Shown: positions 8,642 through 29,113 of the stretch, one piece after another
How the letters are laid out: every line of letters starts with the position of its first letter
How positions within the stretch are numbered: position 1 is the first letter of the stretch
Assembly: GCA_020632335.1 (NCBI GenBank)
Contig: JACKFV010000001.1
Span: forward strand, 570,001 to 602,000
Direction of reading: 5' to 3'
From: Candidatus Saccharimonadota bacterium
GTDB taxonomy: Bacteria; Patescibacteriota; Gracilibacteria; UBA4473
Length of the DNA stretch: 32,000 nt
Translations under genes and position numbers: made by a program
The notes under the pieces: generated by a model
Told to the model about the DNA's origin: nothing
Databases searched by the model: none
The model's input: only the letters and a program-made list of their open reading frames with translations

Positions 8642-9670
8642 CTAGAGTACTTCCCAGTAGCTCACGCTGGCGATGAGGGCCTGCCCGTGGGCTTGTGGGT
8701 GGGTGTCGTCGCTCAGCACCAGGGTATTCTCCCCACGCTGTAGTGCCGGGAAGCCGCTACTCTGCGGGTGGAGGAGCTCTGGCCGCGGCGTACCATTGAG
8801 CAGTACGGTGCCGGTATCCCCCAGGATGCTGAGGGTGTCGGTGGGGCCCATGGCGTGCTGGAGCTGCACAAAGTCTCCACTCTCCAGGTGGCTTATGGTC
8901 AGGTGCCCGCCTACACTGTAGCTATGCTGGTAGCCAGGGGCGTGCGGCGGGAGGCTCTGGGGGCAGACCCATGTGGGGTCTACGGTGATGGTGATACTGA
9001 GAGGTAAGCGGAGGGCACTGCTGCAGTGCTCTATGGTGATGGTGAGCGGATTCCAGACGTCGCTATACTGCGCGACGGAGAGAGGGCGCGGCTGCCCAGT
9101 ATCCTCGGCCGAGAGCTGCAAACCGCCTACAGAGCCCTCACGCAGGGTAGTGGTGATGGGGTTTTCTCCCACATATATAGCGGGGTTACAGGTGCTCAGC
9201 GTCACCGAGAAGGGCGTCAGACAGGGGGTCAGCTGGTCGATGACGGGGAGGAAATCCTGCACCCGGGCCTGGCAGTGGAGGTGCCTGCCGCGGTGGTCCT
9301 CCCACTGGAGCGTACGGGTGCCGTCATCCAACAGAGAGGGCACTGCCACCACTGAGAAGAGCGCATGCAGGTGCGCCATGCCAGCCTCTTGCCCCTGGGG
9401 GTCGTGGCTGCGTAGCTGGCCGTGGAGGGTGATGGTACGCTCGGCCAATGACGCAGGGCCAAAGTGACTCCCGTGCGTGAGCAGCGCGTCGCTCCCGGGG
9501 GTGTGGAGGTGCACGCGGTGGGGGTCAAACCCCGTGAGCGCAATGGCATAGCTGCCCTCTTCTCTGGTAATAAAGGCCTCGGTGCTGGTGTTGCAGGGGC
9601 TGTCTCCTTCTACTGTGCAGGGGGTCTGGAGGAGCTGCCCGTCAAATCGAAGCGAAGAGAGAAGGTACAT
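8642..9670 (-). CDS. Phage distal tail protein (Dit / Sipho_tail family)-like protein
   Basis: 342 aa. The N-domain pattern RTITLHGQLRS....HLHALFSV...TLQWEDHRGRHLHCQARV....PFSVTLSTCNPAIY matches the consensus layout of siphovirus tail-component proteins as I remember it. The C-terminal half LTISHLESGDFVQL...TLSILGDTGTVLLNGTP...FPALQRGENTLVLS resembles the second Dit domain. No search was run. Confidence 0.55.
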   Translation of the reverse strand: MYLLSSLRFDGQLLQTPCTVEGDSPCNTSTEAFITREEGSYAIALTGFDPHRVHLHTPGSDALLTHGSHFGPASLAERTITLHGQLRSHDPQGQEAGMAHLHALFSVVAVPSLLDDGTRTLQWEDHRGRHLHCQARVQDFLPVIDQLTPCLTPFSVTLSTCNPAIYVGENPITTTLREGSVGGLQLSAEDTGQPRPLSVAQYSDVWNPLTITIEHCSSALRLPLSITITVDPTWVCPQSLPPHAPGYQHSYSVGGHLTISHLESGDFVQLQHAMGPTDTLSILGDTGTVLLNGTPRPELLHPQSSGFPALQRGENTLVLSDDTHPQAHGQALIASVSYWEVL

Positions 9671-9690
9671 AGCGCGGAGAAAGTGCTACC

Positions 9691-9696
9691 AGTATA
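9691..9696 (-). promoter_or_regulatory. -10-like TATACT box upstream of the Dit-like gene (no clear -35)
   Basis: TATACT, then 20 nt, then ATG at 9670. Confidence 0.3.
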
Positions 9697-9797
9697 GTCT
9701 GGCGGGGATGGAGAACCTCACTTTTTCCTTAATGGAAATGATAATAATAAAAAGTCAAGAGGGAATGCGCTTGCTCTTTTATTTGCAGCATTTTGAT

Positions 9798-10344: not shown

Positions 10345-10716
10345 ATGCGTATTGCTGGCACGCTCATCCCTACCGAAAAGCGCCTCATCATTGCCCTCAC
10401 TTATGTGCATGGCATTGGGCCCAAACTCTCTGCGGACGTCTGCACCGCCACGGGCATAGACCCCAGCACGCGCGTGAAGGACCTCACGCCTGAGCAGCAA
10501 GACGCCATACTGGACGCCGTACAGGGCTATACACTGGAGTCTGACCTGCGCCGAGAACTTTCTCAGGATATCAAACGCCTGCAAGACATCGGTAGCTACC
10601 GTGGGTATCGGCATCGTCGTCGGCTGCCAGTGCGTGGTCAGCGGACGAAAACCAACGCCCGTACGCGTAAAGGGCGTGGTGCGGCCATCGCTGGTAAGAA
10701 GAAAGTCACCAAGTAA
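10345..10716 (+). CDS. rpsM: Ribosomal protein S13
   Basis: Internal start [26 protein letters not shown]... ends in ...[14 protein letters not shown]. The track ORF from 10216 overlaps rpmJ and is an artefactual extension. Confidence 0.95.
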
Positions 10717-10728
10717 CCCCTCCCTCCT

Positions 10729-11109
10729 ATGGCAGAAGTGAAGAAAAAACGAGTCAAGAAGCAGTTCCAGGACGGCGTTGTGGCCGTGTGTGCTGCGTAC
10801 AATAACACCATTGTGACGCTCTCAGACCCCGACGGCAACGTGCTGGGGTGGGCCAGCCCCGGGCGTATGGGGTTCAAGGGGGCTCGCCAAGCAACGCCCT
10901 ACGCCGCGCAGGTGAGTGGGGAGAACGTGGCCGAACAGGCCCAGACCTATGGCATGACGAGCGTTAAAGTGGTGATCAAGGGCCCCGGCCCAGGGCGTGA
11001 GCAAGCCGTGCGTGGCCTCATTAATGGGGGCCTGGATATTTCTCAGATTATTGACCGGACGCGCCTGCCACATGGTGGTTGCCGCGTACGACGCCAGCGC
11101 AAAGTATAA
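10729..11109 (+). CDS. rpsK: Ribosomal protein S11
   Basis: 126 aa. Contains NNTIVTLSDPDGNVLGWAS.G..GFKGARQATPYAAQ and a C-terminal PHGGCR.RR.RKV. Confidence 0.95.
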   Translation: MAEVKKKRVKKQFQDGVVAVCAAYNNTIVTLSDPDGNVLGWASPGRMGFKGARQATPYAAQVSGENVAEQAQTYGMTSVKVVIKGPGPGREQAVRGLINGGLDISQIIDRTRLPHGGCRVRRQRKV

Positions 11110-11121
11110 CCTCTCTTTCTT

Positions 11122-11736: not shown

Positions 11737-11790
11737 TCCTGTGCGTGGGGTCTTTCTTCTTTACACACACTTTCTCTAGTCCTCCTCCAG

Positions 11791-15980: not shown

Positions 15981-15986
15981 TATACT
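15981..15986 (+). promoter_or_regulatory. -10-like TATACT box upstream of the portal-like gene (no clear -35)
   Basis: TATACT, then 19 nt (gccggcgtaatctcctcct), then ATG at 16006. Confidence 0.3.
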
Positions 15987-16005: not shown

Positions 16006-16233
16006 ATGCTCCCGCACCTTTGTCCTCGGCTCCAGCGCGACCACCGCTATCGGGCGCGCATGCTGCGTATGGCACGGGGGGAATTTGGCGATTTTTTTGA
16101 CACCACCCTGGTGGCAGATTCCCTGGCGAGTTCGCCGCTGTTTCCTCGGCTGGAGGCGATTTTGCGCCGGAAGAAACAAGACGTACACCGGGCATTTCTT
16201 CCTCTGTTTTCTAACTACTTTCAGGCGTATTAG
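16006..16233 (+). CDS. N-terminal fragment of phage portal-like gene (ends at in-frame TAG 16231..16233)
   Basis: 75-aa ORF in the same frame (frame 1) as ORF 16243..17319, separated from it only by TAG plus 3 codons. The ATG sits in the same CU-rich context (taatctcctcctATG) as the ribosomal genes. Combined length of about 437 aa would be portal-sized. Confidence 0.4.
   Translation: MLPHLCPRLQRDHRYRARMLRMARGEFGDFFDTTLVADSLASSPLFPRLEAILRRKKQDVHRAFLPLFSNYFQAY
16231..16233 (+). other. In-frame amber (TAG) codon splitting the portal-like reading frame
   Basis: Codons read ...ttt cag gcg tat TAG cgc atc atc GTG agt ttt..., with the same frame on both sides. Confidence 0.9.
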
Positions 16234-16242
16234 CGCATCATC

Positions 16243-17319
16243 GTGAGTTTTACGCTGGGGGCTCCTCTGGTGCCACTGCTGGAGGATCACGCCGAGAAGC
16301 CCTTCACCCAGTGGCTGGCGGCCCATAGTATGCAAGACGTGCTGGAGGCGCAGCTGCGCGACACCGTGGCCGGAGGCATGGTGGGGATGCGCCTGCGGTG
16401 GGAGGGGGAGGAGATTGTCCCAGAGCCCTTCAGTGCGGAGCAGTACTACCCCGCACGCCACCTGCTGTATGGGTATGACGCCGCGGAGGCCTGTCTACTC
16501 TGGCAGCGGGAGCACGAGAATGGTCAGCTGGGGCACTACCTTATGCACTACGCCGCGGAGGAGACGGGCTATCACCTCCACTATGGTGATGTGCAGCTGG
16601 GGGAGCAGGGGCAGTGCCAGGCGCCTGTGCCGCTGCACCGTGAGGAGAAGCCCTACCCCGTACTGCCGCTGGTGGTGATGCATAACCTCAGTACGGATGC
16701 CTATGGCCTGGGGGTGAGTAGCTTTACGCATGGGGTGGGGCTGGTGCAGGCCATTGCGCTGCTGGAGACCATTGCACTGATAGAGATCCAGAGCCACTTC
16801 ATGAGTAAATTGGCTATCCCCATGACGCACATCCACCATGTGCAGCGGATGGAGAAACTGAGTGAGGGTGGAGGGTTTGACCCCAGCTATTACATCTTCC
16901 CGGATGATGGGAGCATCCCCCAGTATGTGCAGAAGGACAACGCTTTCTTTACCCCGCTGTTTGACCTCATCGCTACGCTGAAGCAGGAGCTCAGTCTGCA
17001 GTGGGGGGTGCCGCTCAGCCTGCTGATGCGAGAGACCACCGGCACCGAGAAAGTCGAGCTGAGCCAGGTGCGTCGGCGGCCATTTGTGCAGATGATCCGC
17101 CAGTACCAGCGGCGGGTGCAGCGCTATCTCACGCAGATGGCTGGGGTGTACTACCGTCTGCTGGGGTACGAGGAAACCCCCGTGTTGCGCTGGCAGTGGG
17201 GGGAGGTGCTGGCGCCGGATAGTTATAAGGAGACCGAACGTATCCTCAGCCAGCTGGAGGCCGGGGTGATATCGAAGACCGAGGCGCGGCAGCTACTGGG
17301 TATGGAGGGGCAGGCCTAG
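16243..17319 (+). CDS. Phage portal protein-like (main body and C-terminus)
   Basis: 358-aa ORF with a GTG start per the track. The C-terminal layout LSLQWGVPLSLLMRETTG...RWQWGEVLAPDSYKETERILSQLEAGVISKTEARQLLGMEG resembles portal (SPP1 gp6 / HK97-type) wing and crown regions. No search was run. Confidence 0.6.
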   Translation: MSFTLGAPLVPLLEDHAEKPFTQWLAAHSMQDVLEAQLRDTVAGGMVGMRLRWEGEEIVPEPFSAEQYYPARHLLYGYDAAEACLLWQREHENGQLGHYLMHYAAEETGYHLHYGDVQLGEQGQCQAPVPLHREEKPYPVLPLVVMHNLSTDAYGLGVSSFTHGVGLVQAIALLETIALIEIQSHFMSKLAIPMTHIHHVQRMEKLSEGGGFDPSYYIFPDDGSIPQYVQKDNAFFTPLFDLIATLKQELSLQWGVPLSLLMRETTGTEKVELSQVRRRPFVQMIRQYQRRVQRYLTQMAGVYYRLLGYEETPVLRWQWGEVLAPDSYKETERILSQLEAGVISKTEARQLLGMEGQA

Positions 17320-17356: not shown

Positions 17357-17381
17357 GGCTCCCGCTGTGGGGGCTTTTTTT
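17357..17381 (+). terminator. Intrinsic terminator after the portal-like gene
   Basis: The sequence ggctccc(gctgt)gggggct forms a 7-bp stem including 2 G-U pairs. It is followed by ttttttt, about 40 nt after the TAG stop. It lies between convergent genes. Confidence 0.6.
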
Positions 17382-17384
17382 GTA

Positions 17385-20680: not shown

Positions 20681-21727
20681 ATGCTCACGCTTCACCTCCT
20701 CAACGCCCAGCTGCAGCCCACTCGCACGCTGCCCATTACCCGTATGCAGCTGCGGGAGGGGCTGCATGGGGAGCTGAGCGGGAGCGTGACGGTGCCGCTG
20801 CATGCCTGCACAGGGGACGCACCAGCGCCCGTGACGGCGCTCTGGCAGCCGGTGCGGGTTCTCTATAGGGCCAGTACTAGCCCCCAGGCGGAGGAGCTCT
20901 GCACGGGGTTTCTCACCCAGGTGGTGGCCAGTAGTGAGGGGCTGACGCTCTCTCTCATCGGGCTGCCTGGCTATCTGCAGCGCTGTGTGGTGCCCGTGGG
21001 GGCGGTGGGGGAGCAACCCCTGCGGGAGCGACTCCAGCAGCTGTGGACGCAGATAACGCAGATGCTGCCCACCGTGCTCCGCTTGCAGAGCGATATAGAG
21101 GCCCTCAGTACCAGCACCGTGTACCCCGGCATGAGCCTCTGGGACGTTATCATCCCCTGGCTGCAGGTGGGGGCGGTACTGCGTATGCATCTGCCGGATA
21201 TCTCCCTCTGGCAGACGCCACCACTGCTACAGTGCCCGGGGCTGCGGTTCTCGGGCATGAGCGCCGGGGGGGACACCCTCACTTTTCCTATCACTCGGCA
21301 GAGTGACGCGCTGCTGGCGGCCAACTACGCTGTGGTACAGGGGGATAGCTCGCTCTACCGTACGGCGGGGCTGAGCCCGCTGCTGCTGCCGCTGGGGGCC
21401 TTCTGGCGGATAACGGGCACGGGGCAGCTGCCCCAGCAGGCCGAGGCGCTGCTGACCCCCCGCCTGGAGCCCACGCGCAGCACTACCGTTACCCTCCACC
21501 CCCATCAGCTCCCCCAGCACTACCCGGTGGGGGCGGTGACGTCTTTCTCGCTGCGGACGGGCTGGGAGGGACTCACGGCGGAGGAGCGGGTGACCATCAC
21601 GGAGCGGACGCTCACGCTGCGGGAGACGGGGCTGACGACTACCCTCACCCTGGTACCACAGGGGACGGTACCACTGCTGGAGGCTTCTCTGGAGGCCAGA
21701 CTGCGTGTGGTGGAGGGGAGTTCTTGA
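20681..21727 (+). CDS. Phage tail hub / Tal N-terminal (Prophage_tail, gp27-like)-like protein
   Basis: 348 aa. The layout LHLLNAQLQPTRTLP.ITRMQLREGLHGELSGSVTVPLH ... SLWDVIIPWLQVGAVLRMH ... GLRFSGMSAGGDTLTFPITRQSDALLAANYAVVQG resembles the structural N-terminal part of siphovirus tail-associated (Tal) proteins. There is no enzymatic C-terminal domain. By-eye call only. Confidence 0.45.
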   Translation: MLTLHLLNAQLQPTRTLPITRMQLREGLHGELSGSVTVPLHACTGDAPAPVTALWQPVRVLYRASTSPQAEELCTGFLTQVVASSEGLTLSLIGLPGYLQRCVVPVGAVGEQPLRERLQQLWTQITQMLPTVLRLQSDIEALSTSTVYPGMSLWDVIIPWLQVGAVLRMHLPDISLWQTPPLLQCPGLRFSGMSAGGDTLTFPITRQSDALLAANYAVVQGDSSLYRTAGLSPLLLPLGAFWRITGTGQLPQQAEALLTPRLEPTRSTTVTLHPHQLPQHYPVGAVTSFSLRTGWEGLTAEERVTITERTLTLRETGLTTTLTLVPQGTVPLLEASLEARLRVVEGSS

Positions 21728-23684: not shown

Positions 23685-26105
23685 TTACTCTCGAGAAAAT
23701 CCTCCCGCAGACGTATTCAGCAGTTCACGACTGGGAGTCAGCCGGCCATTACGCAGCTCCACTGCGGGCGTGGTCTCCTCACTGGCTGACCGCAGAGGGA
23801 CGCTGCTGGGCACCGCTTCGGAGCTCTGCATCTCTCGCCCTAGGGCCTCCCGGGTGGGGATGCGCGCTGCGCTCGGCTCGGTGACGGTGGGCGTAGGGGG
23901 GGATTCTACCGGAGAGCTACTGCGGACACTCCTGGTGGTGGCGGTGCCCTGGTAGGCGCCGCGGTAGGACTGCCCCAGCAGATAGGGGTAGAAGCCGCCT
24001 TCGGTCTTCTCCTGGCCGTTATTCAGCGGCAGGGTGTAGGTCTTCTGCAAGTCCGCCCCCACGGCGTGGGAGATACCGTCTGTCATGGTCACGCCCTCTG
24101 GCATGCGGAACCCCGTATACGCATGCGGGTAGACGCTATAGAAGGTCCGCACTACCTCCTGCCAGATGTCCCCCAGGCTCAGCGCCGCAAAGGCCCCCTC
24201 CTTCAGCGCGCTGCCGTCGGTGTTGCCTCCCCAGAGCAAGAAGGTATGCGTGGGCGTCCAGCTGATGATGAGGTTATCCACCGGGCGTAGCTGGCCGTCG
24301 ATGCGCTTGGTGCTGGTGCCGGTCTTCACGGCCATGTTGTAGTCTGGCACGGTGACTTTCTCGCCCCATATCCCGGGGGAGCGCAGGCGCGTGTCGCTCA
24401 GCATATCGCTCATGAGGAAGGCCGTGACGGGGTCATAGTCGCGCACTTGGCTGCTCTGGCAGGGGTTTGCTATTGCTTCCCCGGTGAGGGTTTCGGCCTC
24501 CAGCAGCGGGCACAGCGGTCGCCACTGCGCGCTCCCCAGTGTGGCCATGGCACTGGCAAAATCCTGCAGCCGTAGTGGTACCGTCCCCAGGCTGATCGTC
24601 CAGCCGAACTGGTGCTCGGGGTAGCTGGTGTTGATATCCAGCCCGAAGTGCTCGTCGAGGTAGCTTCGCACCGCTGCCTCGCCTCCGGCCATATACACGG
24701 CCTTGGCGGCTGGTACATTCCGGCTCCAGCTCAGTGCCTGTCGCAGTGCCATATTGCCGCTGTAGGTCCCGTCAGAGTTCTGTACCGAGCGCTTATCTCC
24801 TCGGAAGATAACGGGCAAGTCCGGCACCAGCGTACTGGGGCTATAGCCCTGCTGCAGCGCCGCGGCGTATACCAGGGGTTTGATGGCTGACCCGGGCTGC
24901 CGACGCGATGTCAGCATATTCACCTGGCCGGCTATGTCCTCATTCCAGAAGGCCTTGGACCCAATGTACACAATGGGCGAGCGCGTGCTATTCTCGAGGA
25001 TGAGCAGGCTGACGTTCTCGATGCCCCAGTCGGTATAGAGCTGTGCGGTGTGCTGGGTCAGCAGGTTATAGAAGTAGCGCTGCAGCGGCGCCGAGACCGT
25101 AGTGCGTACGCGCAGACCCCCCGGGTACTGCTTACGGGTGATGCCCTGCTCCAGCAGCCAGCGCTTGACGTACTCCTGCCAGTGCTGGAAGAGATCCCGC
25201 GTGTAGGGCCTGCGTGGCGGCAGGGTGATGTCTCCTAGTGCTGCCCAGGTCTTGCTGGTGCGGCTGAGCGGCCAGCGGTAGTGCGCCGCGGTACGCAGCA
25301 GCACGGTCTCTATCCGGCTGAGGGTGTAGTCCGTATGCGTGAAGGGCGTGCAGCTGTACTGCAGCGCCTGGCTCTCGTCGGTGCAGCCACCCAGCCAGTC
25401 GGCCACCACGGGCGATCGCAGGGCTTCATTGGGGTTTTGCGGAATGGTACTGAGCACCAGCGCCTCAGCGTCACTCAGCTGCTTGGGGGAGCGCGAGAAG
25501 TAGGTCTCGGCGGCGGCCTTCACGCCATAGATCTGCCCGCCATAGGGCGCTACATTCAGGTACATCTCGAGGATATCGTGCTTGGAGTGGGTGGATTCTA
25601 TCCCCAGCGCGATCACCACTTCTCGCAGTTTCCGCTCCAGCGACCGCTCGTCGGTGAGGAACATCTTGCGCGCCAGCTGCTGGGTGATGGTACTGGCCCC
25701 CTCGCTGATGCCCCCGGAGAGGTAATTAGTCACCGCGGCCCGCGCTATACCAATGGGGTCAAACCCCGGATGAACATAGAACCGTTTGTCCTCGGCCTGT
25801 ACGGTGAACTGCAAGAGCGACTCGGGCAGCTGCTCCAGGTCTATCCACTCGCGGTTGGCGTCGGTCACCTGGCGGTAGATTTCTTCCCCGAAGGTATCGG
25901 TAATGATGACCGGGTACTGCATATCGGTGCGGTCTAGCAGCTGCCCCCGGACGAAATCCTCCATAAAGTACCACACAAAGCCCGCTACCGTCAGCACCCC
26001 CAGTAGCAGCATGATGAGCCCGAAAATCAGCAGCCCCCGCACAGCCCGCCACCCCCACCACAGGGGGCGTGTAGCACAGAGAGCATCGTGGTCGAGGACT
26101 TGCAT
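23685..26105 (-). CDS. Class A penicillin-binding protein (transglycosylase/transpeptidase, PBP1A-type)
   Basis: Glycosyltransferase motif EDKRFYVHPGFD. Transpeptidase motifs SAIKP (SxxK), SWSRN (SxN) and KTGTS. An N-terminal TM helix is present. I chose the start at MQVLDHD (26105); the track extension to 26273 crosses a terminator and abuts the capsid gene. Confidence 0.92.
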   Translation of the reverse strand: MQVLDHDALCATRPLWWGWRAVRGLLIFGLIMLLLGVLTVAGFVWYFMEDFVRGQLLDRTDMQYPVIITDTFGEEIYRQVTDANREWIDLEQLPESLLQFTVQAEDKRFYVHPGFDPIGIARAAVTNYLSGGISEGASTITQQLARKMFLTDERSLERKLREVVIALGIESTHSKHDILEMYLNVAPYGGQIYGVKAAAETYFSRSPKQLSDAEALVLSTIPQNPNEALRSPVVADWLGGCTDESQALQYSCTPFTHTDYTLSRIETVLLRTAAHYRWPLSRTSKTWAALGDITLPPRRPYTRDLFQHWQEYVKRWLLEQGITRKQYPGGLRVRTTVSAPLQRYFYNLLTQHTAQLYTDWGIENVSLLILENSTRSPIVYIGSKAFWNEDIAGQVNMLTSRRQPGSAIKPLVYAAALQQGYSPSTLVPDLPVIFRGDKRSVQNSDGTYSGNMALRQALSWSRNVPAAKAVYMAGGEAAVRSYLDEHFGLDINTSYPEHQFGWTISLGTVPLRLQDFASAMATLGSAQWRPLCPLLEAETLTGEAIANPCQSSQVRDYDPVTAFLMSDMLSDTRLRSPGIWGEKVTVPDYNMAVKTGTSTKRIDGQLRPVDNLIISWTPTHTFLLWGGNTDGSALKEGAFAALSLGDIWQEVVRTFYSVYPHAYTGFRMPEGVTMTDGISHAVGADLQKTYTLPLNNGQEKTEGGFYPYLLGQSYRGAYQGTATTRSVRSSSPVESPPTPTVTEPSAARIPTREALGREMQSSEAVPSSVPLRSASEETTPAVELRNGRLTPSRELLNTSAGGFSRE

Positions 26106-26142: not shown

Positions 26143-26216
26143 TACTTCGGGGCTTGCTTTGTTCTCTTTTTTCGTCTGGTGTGGGTATAGTGTATGCTGC
26201 GCTGACGAACTATAGT

Positions 26217-26241
26217 AAAAAACCCCACCGCGGTGGTGGGG
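26217..26241 (-). terminator. Intrinsic terminator immediately after the capsid-like gene
   Basis: On the minus strand, CCCCACC(accgc)GGUGGGG is followed by UUUUUU, about 30 nt after the stop at 26273. Confidence 0.75.
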
Positions 26242-26272
26242 TTTCTCTGGCGTGGGGGAAGGGCGCTCAGCA

Positions 26273-27322
26273 CTAGAGGGTGAAGACCTGCTGGCTCACG
26301 AAGGCCTGTGGCCGGGCAAACACCGGCGCGCCGTAGTAGGAGACGAAGTAGGCGTCTCGGCGGGGGTTATCGGCTGTGAGGATCTGGAAGTAGCGGCCGT
26401 AGGTCTCGCAGCTGCGGTCGTCTATATTGCGCGCGTCATAGCGGAGCACCGGGCTACAGCTGCCGTGCTGGCCCATCACTACCACCTGCCCGTCGGGGAT
26501 GAAGCGTACCGTACTCCCGCTCCCATCGGTATAGAAGCCGTCATACACGTGCAGCTCCATCCCCATGAGCGTCCCCATAGATTCGCCACGCAGGGTGTAG
26601 TCGCACAGGCAGTTGCCCAGGCTCTCGCGGACTTGGTCGGTCTGCAGGAGCGTACTGAAGGTCAGCTGATTCATGAGGATCTTGCTGGCCCGCATGCCGG
26701 TATCTCGCAGCGCTAGCTTCATTCGCTCTATGTCCTCTATGGGGTGGGCGGTGGCCACGGCGGTCCATTGGTCGCCCGCTACCAGGGGGCTGAGCACCTG
26801 CGTGCCGGTCTCCACCGTGTGGGTGCCGCCATTCTGGCTGGTGTAGGTGATGGTGCCGAAGACCCCCTCCCAGAAGGGTTTCTCGAGGAAGAGCAGCTGG
26901 CGGTCAGCCATAGCCTTCACGATGTGCTCGATGAGGTCTACCGCGCGTTCTTCCTCGGCGTGGCTGCAGCTGGGCGACTGCGCATTGCACACCACGCGTA
27001 GCTCATCAGCGTGCAGGGTGCGGGTTTCTTTGTACCCCACCAGGCCGAATTCCTGGCTCTCGGGGGTGACGCGCAGTTCTATCTCGTTACCCTGGGAGTT
27101 GTCGTCTACTATAGAGGGCACCCCGCTGCTCTGCTGGTACTGCAGGAGCGTGGCGTAGAGGTGGTCGGTTTTCTTGGGCGCGCCCATCAGCTGTATGCCC
27201 AGGTAGTCACTAGCGGAGGAATTGCTCAGCCCATCATAGAGCGCGCTGGCACAGTCGGGCTCCAGCAGCTGCGCCAGGCCACACTGGTGCACGATGCCGG
27301 AGAGAGTAGGGGAGGGAGTCAT
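26273..27322 (-). CDS. Phage major capsid protein, lambda gpE family-like (HK97 fold)
   Basis: 349 aa. By eye it runs parallel to lambda gpE along its C-terminal two thirds. GDQWTAVATAHPIEDIERMKLALRDTGMRASKILMNQLTF corresponds to TEWSKRD..YDPTDDIEAY. ELHVYDGFYTDGSGSTVRFIPDGQVVVMG corresponds to VAIVVYSGQYVENGVKKNFLPDNTMVLGN. YFQILTADNPRRDAYFVSYYGAPVFARPQAFVSQQV corresponds to YPKNWVTTGDPAREFTMIQSAPLMLLADPDEFVSVQL. Confidence 0.7.
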   Translation of the reverse strand: MTPSPTLSGIVHQCGLAQLLEPDCASALYDGLSNSSASDYLGIQLMGAPKKTDHLYATLLQYQQSSGVPSIVDDNSQGNEIELRVTPESQEFGLVGYKETRTLHADELRVVCNAQSPSCSHAEEERAVDLIEHIVKAMADRQLLFLEKPFWEGVFGTITYTSQNGGTHTVETGTQVLSPLVAGDQWTAVATAHPIEDIERMKLALRDTGMRASKILMNQLTFSTLLQTDQVRESLGNCLCDYTLRGESMGTLMGMELHVYDGFYTDGSGSTVRFIPDGQVVVMGQHGSCSPVLRYDARNIDDRSCETYGRYFQILTADNPRRDAYFVSYYGAPVFARPQAFVSQQVFTL

Positions 27323-27344
27323 AGCGAGGGGAAAAGTCGCCCCT

Positions 27345-27350
27345 AGTATA
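27345..27350 (-). promoter_or_regulatory. Proximal -10-like TATACT box in the capsid-gene leader
   Basis: TATACT, then 22 nt, then ATG at 27322. No -35 is recognisable. Confidence 0.3.
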
Positions 27351-27384
27351 CCCTGGCGTGCTCTGTCACGGGCAGACGAAAGAG

Positions 27385-27411
27385 AGGCGTTGTAACATAG
27401 TCACAACGCCT
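27385..27411 (-). promoter_or_regulatory. Perfect 9-bp hairpin in the capsid-gene 5' leader
   Basis: The stem aggcgttgt / acaacgcct has a 9-nt loop. No U-run follows on either strand, so it is not a terminator. Confidence 0.5.
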
Positions 27412-27513
27412 AGGTGAGAGAGCTTTACAGGGGTGTTGTATCTAGAAATAAATATCTCCGGATGCGCTCTAGGGTGAGTAAAGCGGCGAATGTATTACTC
27501 TCTACCTGTTTTT

Positions 27514-27542
27514 ATTATATACCCTACAATATTGACTGTCAA
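27514..27542 (-). promoter_or_regulatory. Perfect consensus sigma70-type promoter facing the capsid-like gene
   Basis: TTGACA-N17-TATAAT read on the minus strand (-35 at 27542..27537, -10 at 27519..27514). It lies about 190 nt upstream of ATG 27322 and directly after terminator 27552..27585. Confidence 0.65.
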
Positions 27543-27551
27543 GTAGTGGAT

Positions 27552-27585
27552 AAAAAAATCCGCACTGCGCATGCAATGCGGATTT
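27552..27585 (-). terminator. Intrinsic terminator (ends candidate sRNA and any hisS read-through)
   Basis: On the minus strand, AAAUCCGCA(uugcaugcgcag)UGCGGAUUU is followed by further U residues. Confidence 0.75.
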
Positions 27586-27768
27586 CCCAGACAGCTTCTA
27601 TCCGCCAAGTGCGCTGCTGGGGGGCTAGTGGTCAGATTTAAAATTAGCTGGGAGGAGATGGGAAAATATGGAGGAGAAGGACCACTACTAGCCGTTGTTC
27701 TTGTTTTAATACATTTTGACAAAAATCCCTAAAATTTCAATTTATGTTTCCCCAGAATACTCAAGAAC
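27552..27768 (-). ncRNA. Candidate ~215-nt structured sRNA between hisS and the capsid-gene promoter, with a CU-rich 46-nt loop
   Basis: Minus-strand TTGACA-N16-TACAGT at 27802..27775. The 5' stem is GUUCUUG/CAAGAAC (27768-27762 with 27703-27697). An 11-bp stem (27693-27680 with 27633-27623) encloses CUUCUCCUCCAUAUUUUCCCAUCUCCUCCCAGC.... A third stem pairs 27622-27614 with 27595-27586. The terminator is AAAUCCGCA/UGCGGAUUU followed by a U-run. No credible ORF is present. Confidence 0.5.
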
Positions 27769-27774
27769 ACGGAT

Positions 27775-27802
27775 ACTGTAATAGATAGAGCAACCGTGTC
27801 AA
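27775..27802 (-). promoter_or_regulatory. Promoter of candidate sRNA, 3 nt after the hisS stop
   Basis: TTGACA-N16-TACAGT. Confidence 0.6.
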
Positions 27803-27805
27803 GCC

Positions 27806-29113
27806 CTAAGCATGCCCGAGGAATTCCAGCGTAGTATCCAGTGGTTTGTCGACGGTCAGCAGGGAATCGAGGTGCTCCAATAGCCGCTCCCGAGGGATCT
27901 CCTCACTGCGGCCACGCTTCATCTCTCGTAGGAGTACGGTGCCGTTTTCTACCTCTGTATCGCCCAGCAGCAGCGTATACGGCACTCGGAATTTCTGCGC
28001 GCGCTGCAGCTGCTCTATCATGCTGGTGTTGCCCATAGCCCCCACCGCATGCAGGCCGTGCTCCCGCAGCTGCACCAGCAGTGGCAGGGCGTGGCGCTTG
28101 GCCTCATTACCCGTAGCGGCCACGAATATCTGAATATATCCCTTCTTGGGCACGGCTACTTTCTTCTCCAGCATGAGGTCAATCGTGCGCTCCATCCCGC
28201 ACTGGAAGCCCGCTCCCCCCAGACCCTGCCCCCCCAGCTGCTCGATGAGCCCGTCATACCGCCCCCCCACGAGGATCTTCTGCCGGGTGCCGGTCTTGCG
28301 GAATTCAAACACAGTGTGATTGTAGTACTCCACCGGGCGCACCAGCGTGGGGTCCAGCGTGTAGGGGATCTCGAACATCTCCAGGTAGCGCCGCATCTGC
28401 TCGTAGAGGTCGCGGCTCTTCTTACTGAGGAAATCCAGCATCTTGGGTGCCATCTGCAGGAGGATCTCCTCGTCCTCGCTCTTGGGGTCCAGCAGCTGCA
28501 GGTAGCGTCTTTGCTGCAGCATCTCACGGCTGCCGGGGGTCAGCGCGCGCTCCTTACCGGTGTAGAAGTTCTGCAGCGCCTCAAAGTACTTTACTCGGTC
28601 CTCGTGGCTCCCCAGGGTGTTGATCCGCAGTTCCACCAGATCTCGTACGCTGAGGTCCCGAAGGATACGGTGCCCCAGGTAGATCAGCTGCGCGTCTATG
28701 GCGGGGTCGGTCTCGCCCAGTACCTCGCCGCCAAACTGCCAGAACTCCCGTTTGGTGCCGCTCTTCAGCCGCTGGTAGCGCCACACGCGGTCGATGTAAT
28801 AGAGCTCTTGTGGCAGCGCCTGCTCGTCCATATGGTGCTCGATGAAGCTGCGCACAATGCCCGGCGTTATCTCTGGCCGCAGGCTGAGGCTGCGTCCGCG
28901 GGGGTCAGTGAAGGTGTAGAGCTCCGAGCTGATGATCTTGGTGTCCAGCCCCAGGGCCTGCTCGTAGAGCGCGGTTTCCTCAAAGGCCGGCACCGCTATC
29001 CGCTGGAACCCTGCCTGCCGGAAGCGGTAGCGCACGACCTTCGTGATGAAATTGAAGTAGTCGTGGTCCGCCGGGAGGATGTCGCTCGTGCCTTGAGGAG
29101 AAGTAAACGCCAT
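27806..29113 (-). CDS. hisS: Histidyl-tRNA synthetase
   Basis: Class II motifs including WRYQRLKSGTKREFWQFGGEVLG and GGRYDGL. I chose the start at MAFTSPQGTSDILP (29113); the track start at 29158 is a TTG lying upstream of the predicted -10. Confidence 0.93.
   Translation of the reverse strand: MAFTSPQGTSDILPADHDYFNFITKVVRYRFRQAGFQRIAVPAFEETALYEQALGLDTKIISSELYTFTDPRGRSLSLRPEITPGIVRSFIEHHMDEQALPQELYYIDRVWRYQRLKSGTKREFWQFGGEVLGETDPAIDAQLIYLGHRILRDLSVRDLVELRINTLGSHEDRVKYFEALQNFYTGKERALTPGSREMLQQRRYLQLLDPKSEDEEILLQMAPKMLDFLSKKSRDLYEQMRRYLEMFEIPYTLDPTLVRPVEYYNHTVFEFRKTGTRQKILVGGRYDGLIEQLGGQGLGGAGFQCGMERTIDLMLEKKVAVPKKGYIQIFVAATGNEAKRHALPLLVQLREHGLHAVGAMGNTSMIEQLQRAQKFRVPYTLLLGDTEVENGTVLLREMKRGRSEEIPRERLLEHLDSLLTVDKPLDTTLEFLGHA

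Follow-up and report, generated by a model that had tools for sequence, protein, structure and literature searches.

A full-length lambda-type capsid gene as a stand-alone, terminator-flanked unit among housekeeping genes of a Candidatus Saccharimonadota bacterium: a possible member of a scattered siphovirus-derived gene set

We analysed a stretch of 32,000 nt from the Candidatus Saccharimonadota bacterium assembly GCA_020632335.1 (contig JACKFV010000001.1, positions 570,001 to 602,000 of the forward strand), hereafter called the window, in which a gene for a phage-type major capsid protein lies on the minus strand between hisS and a gene for a class A penicillin-binding protein (PBP1A). The original prediction, made from the sequence alone, had described this gene as an insulated monocistronic unit with a perfect consensus promoter and a long structured leader, expressed at a very high level by the host RNA polymerase. 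The features of the unit, in positions of the window, are listed below; P1 and P2 denote the putative promoters and T1 and T2 the putative intrinsic terminators.

27552..27585, minus strand: T1 intrinsic terminator, 13-bp stem, 4-nt loop, U7
27514..27542, minus strand: P1 promoter, TTGACA (27542-27537), 17-nt spacer, TATAAT (27519-27514)
27323..27507, minus strand: leader of the predicted P1 transcript, 185 nt, up to the ATG at 27322
27385..27411, minus strand: leader hairpin or near-perfect palindrome, AGGCGTTGTGAC-TAT-GTTACAACGCCT, then a weak U tract
27320..27358, minus strand: capsid proximal block with putative P2 and a short pyrimidine-rich leader, CGCCAGGG-TATACT-N22-ATG
26273..27322, minus strand: major capsid protein of lambda gpE type, HK97 fold, full length, 349 aa
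26217..26244, minus strand: T2 intrinsic terminator, 10-bp stem, 7-bp GC core, 5-nt loop, U6

The capsid open reading frame (ORF) matched the Pfam family PF03864 (Phage_cap_E) with 62.9 bits against a cut-off of 22.9 (E = 3.6e-17, residues 72-343), this being its sole Pfam hit, and it also matched PHROG 29, major head protein (E = 1.1e-19). An AlphaFold model made from a 24-sequence alignment reached a predicted local distance difference test score (pLDDT) of 88.5 and a predicted template modelling score (pTM) of 0.85. The top Foldseek match of this model was lambda gpE (8k39; E = 4e-17, 339 alignment columns versus a chain of 340 residues); the model also aligned over its full length with the capsid proteins of YSD1, Chi and P23-45, and encapsulins ranked 38th or lower. 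Among the predicted viral structures of BFVD, the top matches were again tailed-phage capsid proteins. The G+C fractions of the gene by codon position (0.62, 0.43 and 0.83) resemble those of host genes. Judged by family and fold, the product is a full-length lambda-type capsid protein and no fragment. The gene does not belong to a head-morphogenesis module, being flanked by hisS and PBP1A, with a portal-like gene 9 kb off on the opposite strand. The capsid homologue of the original prediction is a complete capsid-fold gene outside a prophage; it is not a lone one, since other particle genes are present in the window.

P1 is the sole perfect sigma-70 consensus promoter on both strands of the window, and none of 100 dinucleotide-preserving shuffles gave any; the next-best promoter-like site, at 7712-7685, agrees with the consensus in 11 of 12 positions. 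The transcription start predicted for P1 is at about 27507. In the inverted-repeat and folding analysis, T1 (arms 27585-27573 and 27568-27556) had a fold of -22 kcal/mol (z = -3.4); it closes the hisS unit 220 nt past the hisS stop, and 9 nt separate it from P1. T2 begins about 30 nt past the TAG stop of the capsid gene, whose ORF ends at 26273; its arms (26244-26235 and 26229-26220) include the GC core lengthened by A-U pairs, and the fold had -21 kcal/mol (z = -4.7). The sequence elements expected of a functional unit, precisely consensus hexamers, a 17-nt spacer and GC-rich hairpins followed by U runs, are all there. The uniqueness of the promoter, its position directly after a strong terminator and the 7-bp GC hairpin with U6 past the stop had all been foreseen and were found again in our analysis.

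A stand-alone unit driven by the host polymerase is the natural reading of a perfect promoter between two terminators, and on this point we agree with the original prediction. As regards insulation, the unit is indeed bracketed by two strong terminators, but the layout is not unique: hisS itself follows a terminator (29181-29164) and a promoter of the form TTTACA-17-TATACT (29152-29124), with its ATG at 29113, so that insulation has to be considered a habit of this genome and no speciality of the capsid gene. An own promoter for the PBP gene, also proposed, was not evident by consensus, the best candidate (approximately TTACTA-18-TACACT) being below the threshold of the scan. The very high expression that was proposed would follow from the quality of the promoter alone.

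The leader of about 185 nt, counted from the predicted start at 27507, is structured as was claimed: its fold was more stable than those of 200 out of 200 shuffles (z = -3.6). It consists of a closed 5' domain (27507-27412), next to which comes the hairpin. The hairpin, described before as having 9 bp, is longer than that, with 12 bp including one G.U pair, of which the 9 pairs from the base are perfect Watson-Crick pairs (-17.7 kcal/mol, z = -6.5). The palindrome, which occurs once in the window, has its centre about 60 nt ahead of the putative P2 start, and a search for it before the other phage-like genes of the window gave no recurrence. This palindrome could serve either as a binding site at the DNA level or as a stabilising or attenuating hairpin at the RNA level. 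Rfam gave no match at gathering scores in the whole window and none at permissive E-values in the region 27250-27850. We also compared the access to the start codon in the long leader and in the short P2 transcript, and the mean unpaired probabilities (0.54 versus 0.61) showed no clear difference; for this reason we make no claim of translational control by the leader. A leader of 185 nt is atypical for this genome, the other genes having very short leaders or none.

The second TATACT box that had been noticed 22 nt before the capsid ATG was confirmed at 27350-27345. This box, P2, has no acceptable -35 element, and a transcript starting from it would have about 15 nt before the ATG, including the pyrimidine-rich tract that is usual in this genome. 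A closely similar block precedes a distal tail (Dit)-like gene of the window:

9668..9704, minus strand: proximal block of the Dit-like gene, CGCCAGAC-TATACT-N20-ATG, matching the capsid block

From CGCCAG to ATG, the two blocks are identical in 30 of 39 positions (77%). In the window, CGCCAGnnTATACT is found solely before the capsid and the Dit-like genes, and the arrangement CGCCAG-NN-TATACT occurs only at the same two places. The best non-self match of the capsid block on either strand was the upstream region of the Dit-like gene and, when all 496 pairs of upstream regions were compared, the pair capsid/Dit ranked first, with a score of 29 versus 24 for the runner-up. In the portal-like gene and a minor-tail-like gene, described below, a -10-like box that lacks a -35 element lies 19-23 nt ahead of the ATG. 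The lack of a -35 element in P2 and its place in a block common to the capsid and Dit-like genes are a hint that this promoter depends on a regulator; promoters of the P2 type may be under such control and shared among the particle genes. The earlier view that no phage-type regulator is needed would consequently hold for P1, and P2 speaks against extending it to the whole unit.

As to the start regions of the genome in general, the Shine-Dalgarno sequence is absent before almost all the genes of the window, and pyrimidine-rich tracts precede the ATG (for example at 10715-10728, 11108-11121 and 11777-11790); these tracts are CCUCC-like, that is, of the same sense as the usual anti-Shine-Dalgarno sequence. 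A -10 box of the form TAnAcT lies 6-10 nt before the ATG of the dnaE, wecG, RNHCP, pfkB, Na/Ca exchanger, kinase and hisS genes, which implies effectively leaderless mRNAs; most of the genes with this box have a recognisable -35 element. Among the stop codons of 33 called genes there are 3 TGA, 16 TAG and 14 TAA, in a genome of 60% G+C in which TGA is the commonest of the three stop trinucleotides overall. The scarcity of TGA stops suggests avoidance of TGA as a stop codon.

Besides the capsid gene, we recognised the following candidate particle genes in the window:

8642..9670, minus strand: Dit-like (distal tail) gene, 342 aa, divergent from the infA-rpmJ-rpsM operon
16006..17319, plus strand: portal-like gene with a single in-frame TAG at 16231-16233, separating a 75-codon N-terminal part and a 358-codon part
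20681..21727, plus strand: possible minor tail protein gene, on weak evidence, 348 aa

The Dit-like gene matched the C-terminal domain of siphovirus Dit proteins (PF22768, E = 2.7e-9) and PHROG 5577, minor tail (E = 5e-7). Over its full length it has 25% identity (E = 1e-24) to the gene next after that of the tape measure in the phage contig L007, and it has 26% identity to a homologue in L005, a contig described below. It stands alone, 17 kb from the capsid gene. Both the capsid and the Dit-like ORFs are full length and without frameshifts, with a codon-position composition like that of the host.

The portal-like gene is preceded by a TATACT box of its own (15981-15986) and followed, at about 17357-17382, by a terminator-like hairpin with T7. 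Over residues 155-355, the portal-like protein shares 34% identity (E = 3e-33) with the first gene of the phage contig L010, which occupies the portal position, two genes ahead of a Phage_min_cap2 head-morphogenesis gene. Four weak colinear matches to portal families were obtained, including two portal PHROGs and Pfam Phage_portal, and a tblastn search against 2.3 Gb of phage genomes gave 11 weak matches, with all 10 of the matches listed being annotated portal genes. Sequence and profile searches of the PDB gave no portal match, and a single-sequence AlphaFold model was unusable (pLDDT 37). Word-indexed searches with the portal-like and the minor-tail-like proteins returned the queries themselves only. 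The in-frame TAG may be due to a pseudogene, to an assembly error or to read-through. Reassignment of the stop codon was considered and excluded, as TAG terminates 16 of the 32-33 called genes.

The 348-aa ORF was related, with E-values from 3e-4 to 3e-3, to a 357-aa protein of L005 that matches, in its turn, the gene after Dit in L007 (5e-15); both the ORF and the 357-aa protein hit PHROG 1885, minor tail. The TGA stop of this ORF overlaps the listed TTG start of recJ, and the two genes may be co-transcribed, judging from their arrangement.

The capsid, portal-like and Dit-like genes are 6-17 kb apart and on both strands, and ribosomal-protein operons and other housekeeping genes intervene. 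L007 and L010 are canonical siphovirus head-tail modules, whose capsid proteins (P0007 and P0009) are 26-27% identical to the capsid protein of the window. Since these modules carry relatives of the capsid, portal-like and Dit-like genes, all three genes derive from one phage type.

To find relatives of the capsid protein, we made a word-indexed search of 5.8 billion proteins and scanned 1.8 billion cluster representatives exhaustively with HMMER. The search gave two relatives and the scan four with 33-47% identity (P0003-P0006), the others having at most 30%. Counting P0002 (55%), five relatives with at least 33% identity were found in all. Four of them are described here:

P0002: 55% identity, contig of 41% G+C; next to tRNA-Ser and preceded by a 157-aa gene whose lambda gpD-like (HDPD) match is weak
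P0003: 47% identity, contig of 35% G+C; alone, next to def and a gene for an M23 peptidase
P0005: 33% identity, contig of 43% G+C; 18.8-kb contig (of which 14.2 kb are L005) with particle homologues out of canonical order
P0006: 34% identity, contig of 48% G+C; colinear phage-type module

P0002 is flanked on its other side by a T2SSF gene and dprA. In L005, the capsid, Dit, connector and minor-tail homologues are intermixed with an NhaA antiporter gene, a gene for an LPXTG protein and small unknown genes. In a neighbour-joining tree, the capsid protein of the window grouped with P0002 and P0003, this group being sister to P0004-P0006, and clear phage clades were found beyond; the clade of the window protein is almost unsampled. 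The relatives, from genomes of 35-60% G+C, keep the same capsid length, with a mean column identity of 57-72%. The closest ones (55% and 47%) are in cellular contexts, alone or with a decoration-like gene only, and the more distant ones (26-34%) are in canonical colinear phage modules. A decoration-like gene is directly upstream of the capsid gene in L001, L004, L006, L007 and L010 and is absent in the window and in L003. In the relatives with a cellular context, the capsid gene closes a short unit, being preceded by a promoter-like site and followed by a terminator-like hairpin. No relatives were obtained from the GTDB representative genomes, scanned with the capsid alignment and with HisS, or from IMG/VR, and the JGI metagenome scan gave no contig beyond one already known.

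Two further observations concern these contigs. In the marine relative (L001 1-9420, and L002), the decoration-like and capsid genes adjoin tRNA-Ser, beyond which there are genes for three serine recombinases, an AAA_21 ATPase and a methyltransferase; this region has the look of an integrated island directly next to the capsid unit. In L005 (5875-9110 and 11142-12088, minus strand), there is a family of small genes of 141-189 aa, on the strand opposite to that of the phage-like genes, with strongly similar upstream sequences (for example ...ATATGCGGACAAAAAC...).

The setting of the capsid gene is that of a core chromosome, with dnaE, rnc, nusB, rpmF, mscL, rpsM-rpsK-rpsD-rpoA-rplQ and rplM-rpsI in the window, and furthermore a WecG-type transferase gene, a histidine kinase gene, recJ, PBP1A and hisS; infA and rpmJ, upstream of rpsM, were identified by eye from the sequence. 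The two immediate neighbours are the following:

27806..29113, minus strand: hisS, upstream neighbour of the capsid gene, with its own terminator-promoter pair
23685..26105, minus strand: class A penicillin-binding protein, downstream neighbour of the capsid gene

The listed PBP1A ORF runs over the capsid stop, and the in-frame ATG at 26105 is its likely real start. A 160-aa ORF upstream of hisS is unrelated to decoration genes. We found no integrase, terminase, tRNA gene or contiguous phage block in the 32-kb window, and no repressor or replication genes either. That the DNA comes from a huge phage rather than from a cell was ruled out by the complete operons rpsM-rpsK-rpsD-rpoA-rplQ and rplM-rpsI and by dnaE, nusB, rnc, PBP1A and mscL, to which infA and rpmJ can be added.

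Between the hisS stop and T1 there is a spacer of 220 nt (27586-27805, minus strand; 43% G+C), with promoter-like sites at 27802-27775 and 27740-27713 and, at 27680-27651, a pair of pyrimidine-rich boxes (CCTTCTCCTCC and CCATCTCCTCC) at a distance of 19 nt. This spacer could be a long 3' untranslated region or a small RNA ending at T1. An imperfect 13-nt direct repeat, TTGTTCTCTTTTT and TTGTTCTTGTTTT (26159-26171 and 27695-27707; 11 of 13 positions identical), brackets the cassette made of terminator, promoter, capsid gene and terminator; it is probably due to chance and could otherwise be an insertion scar.

We compared this arrangement with the known systems that carry capsid genes of similar type. 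Lambda gpE (PF03864; PDB 8k39, 7vi9 and 7sj5) is of the same family, with about 341 aa versus 349 and a structural alignment over the full length; the identity, however, is only 19%, and the capsid gene of the window has its own promoter and terminators and is outside a head module. Both in lambda and in relatives of the window protein, a gpD-like decoration gene is directly upstream of the capsid gene, and there is none in the window. Membership in a prophage was considered and not borne out, the only flanking repeat being the 11/13 match just described, probably a chance one. The window resembles cryptic or defective prophages in having structural genes without a complete phage and one gene (the portal-like one) interrupted. 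Unlike prophage remnants, the window lacks a contiguous block, an integrase, att repeats and a flanking tRNA, and the genes are interleaved with essential operons, host-like in composition and provided with their own promoters and terminators. A satellite of the capsid-forming phage-inducible chromosomal island (cf-PICI) type was likewise rejected, as there are no integrase, replication or packaging genes near the capsid gene.

The gene transfer agent (GTA) of Rhodobacter capsulatus, RcGTA, is encoded by a contiguous head-tail cluster of about 15 kb and a few extra loci. It is presented in PMC5026251 as a GTA with a multi-locus 'genome', and GTAs are listed as viriforms in PMC9662315. Like GTAs, the window has tailed-phage structural genes fixed in the chromosome at more than one locus, with no integration or replication genes nearby, and by analogy its particle genes would be controlled by the host. 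Differently from RcGTA, whose capsid protein belongs to PF05065 (PMC8346489), the capsid protein of the window is of another family; its capsid, portal-like and Dit-like genes are singly placed and parted by ribosomal and other core genes, no terminase was seen in the window, the portal-like gene is interrupted, and the set is known from genes alone. With regard to the features by which a GTA can be recognised, the structural genes are in the chromosome without lysogeny, integration or replication modules over the 32 kb; of a full particle set, the capsid, Dit-like, interrupted portal-like and weak minor-tail-like genes were seen in the window; and, as for vertical conservation, there are five relatives with at least 33% identity, two in cellular contexts and one in a scrambled one.

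Encapsulins are nanocompartments of HK97 fold, divided into Families 1-4: PF04454, Family 2, Family 3 (PF05065-like) and PF08967 (PMC8346489). The capsid gene shares with them the position in a cellular genome outside a prophage and the host-type promoter. PF03864, on the other hand, is not an encapsulin family, the capsid gene has no adjacent cargo gene, fusion or targeting-peptide partner, and portal-like and tail-like homologues are present in the window.

A further likeness is with viruses of eukaryotic hosts. The virion genes of bracoviruses (polydnaviriforms) are dispersed in wasp genomes as independent units regulated by the host. Bracoviruses are eukaryotic and derived from nudiviruses, and their particle production is proven. 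Our comparison with them is a functional analogy only, with no homology, and the set in the window is known from genes alone.

The explanation that we favour, to which we give an about even chance of being right, is that the capsid gene is a retained member of a fragmented and scattered gene set derived from a siphovirus, either GTA-like or in late decay. The sequence features, the fold, and the homology and scattering of the other genes are observed; its transcription starts, co-regulation, particle formation and function are proposed. An old gene set of a phage or GTA-like particle would have been broken up, and its pieces kept singly between housekeeping genes. In the capsid unit, the hisS transcript would end at T1, and the host sigma-70 polymerase would initiate at P1 (about 27507), transcribe the leader and the capsid ORF and stop at T2. 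A second start, probably from P2, would be situated about 15 nt before the ATG, and the block that P2 shares with the Dit-like gene may tie the capsid gene to the other particle genes. Translation would begin in the pyrimidine-rich context free of Shine-Dalgarno sequences that is general in this genome. P1 would add a strong transcription, constitutive or separately controlled, and in this way supply at a high dose the most abundant protein of the virion, needed in hundreds of copies.

Several results weigh against this explanation. The shared block is in part a genome-wide habit, as TATACT -10 boxes, pyrimidine-rich leaders and cgctATG starts are found throughout, and the same test on pairs of upstream regions gave no shared block among the phage-like genes of L005 (the top pairs there belonged to an unrelated small-gene family). 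The long leader is no trait of the protein family: that of one relative measures about 25-30 nt, and in others the decoration-like gene comes immediately before the capsid gene. The conservation of the leader, which the original prediction had named as a check, was accordingly not found in these few and distant relatives, whose identities of 47-55% are too low for a test of covariation. Genes for a large terminase, tail tube, tape measure, protease and scaffold were not found in the window, and a decoration gene, looked for by tblastn and with a hidden Markov model of four relatives, was not found in the window, in L003 or in L005. The in-frame TAG of the portal-like gene fits decay more than use, and the assignment of 20681-21727 to a minor tail protein is weak and tentative. 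Finally, the relatives are so few that vertical retention is not separable from repeated capture.

The main alternative, which we consider unlikely, is that these genes are relics of a decaying prophage, with a capsid gene that is intact but useless and a consensus promoter that is a leftover or a chance gain. The stop codon in the portal-like gene, the absence from the window of decoration, scaffold, terminase, tube and tape-measure genes and the great rarity of the family (5 relatives with at least 33% identity among billions of proteins) agree with such a decay, which explains less easily why the capsid and Dit-like ORFs are full length, free of frameshifts and host-like in composition, and why the relatives, over a range of 35-60% G+C, retain the length and a mean column identity of 57-72%. 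Moreover, a promoter with 12 of 12 consensus positions exactly between a terminator and the gene is hardly to be expected by chance, and the relatives in cellular contexts each keep a promoter-like site and a terminator-like hairpin. At the opposite end, and in our opinion equally unlikely, the bacterium would make phage-like particles from a fully dispersed gene set, with the capsid, portal, tail and other virion genes each being a unit of host type; this would be the bacterial equivalent of the dispersed virion genes found in bracoviruses. As parts of the same proposal, the strength of the promoters would set the dosage of the subunits, P1 being the one for the capsid gene, the genes would be co-induced via CGCCAG-NN-TATACT, and the TAG of the portal-like gene would be read through or be an assembly error. 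In a quite different proposal, which concerns the RNA and is improbable to our judgement, the main product of P1 would be a small RNA in its own right, which would run for about 125 nt from 27507 to about 27380 and end at the leader hairpin, and the capsid mRNA would come mostly from P2. The 5' domain and the hairpin do fold as a closed, stable unit, the terminator scan flagged the hairpin as terminator-like, and a leader of this length is out of keeping with the genome; nevertheless, the tract after the hairpin (CUCUUUCGUC) is weak in comparison with the U6-U7 runs of T2 and T1, and no Rfam family was matched. A small RNA from P1 would be compatible with the explanation that we favour for the capsid gene.

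The capsid protein could also have been taken up alone into a non-viral role in which the tail and portal homologues have no part, such as that of a protein shell, of an encapsulin-like nanocompartment or of another structural element. We regard this as quite improbable, even though the gene is a stand-alone unit with a strong host-type promoter and a complete HK97 fold, the relative in L003 is truly lone, between def and another cellular gene, and no decoration gene accompanies the capsid gene in the window. There is in fact no adjacent cargo, as hisS and PBP1A are cut off by terminators; PF03864 is outside the encapsulin families (PMC8346489), and encapsulin structures were far below phage capsids among the matches of the model. 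In addition, the neighbourhood still has portal-like and Dit-like genes from the same type of phage, the latter with the upstream block in common, and the nanocompartment suggested by the original prediction is for these reasons disfavoured. Last, a divergent capsid protein, and perhaps the portal-like and Dit-like proteins too, might poison or divert the assembly of related siphoviruses. Metagenomic phages with the same types of capsid, portal and Dit proteins do exist, and single structural genes under host-type promoters would suit such a role. We rate it as very improbable all the same, the idea being purely speculative; no defence genes were recognised beside the capsid gene in general scans, which did not include a search of a defence library. 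We know of no defence system of such design.

Domesticated phage particles, such as GTAs and tailocins, are known as compact gene clusters. The scattering of capsid, portal-like and Dit-like genes as single genes among essential operons is unusual in this respect. If our favoured explanation is true, such single-gene capsid, portal-like and tail units would represent a much later stage of virus-to-host assimilation than those described in bacteria. They would also offer a natural test of how the ratios of virion subunits are kept without a phage operon, once the strength of promoters has taken over from translational coupling. Should the set be in decay, an intact lambda-type capsid gene with a perfect promoter, in a lineage so thinly sampled, is still a good candidate for an exapted capsid function.

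At the border of the window, an ORF on the minus strand (3-1601), which runs off the window, encodes a large protein with three PG_binding_1 repeats and with matches to phage endolysin PHROGs. Going by these matches, it could be a cell-wall hydrolase of phage origin.

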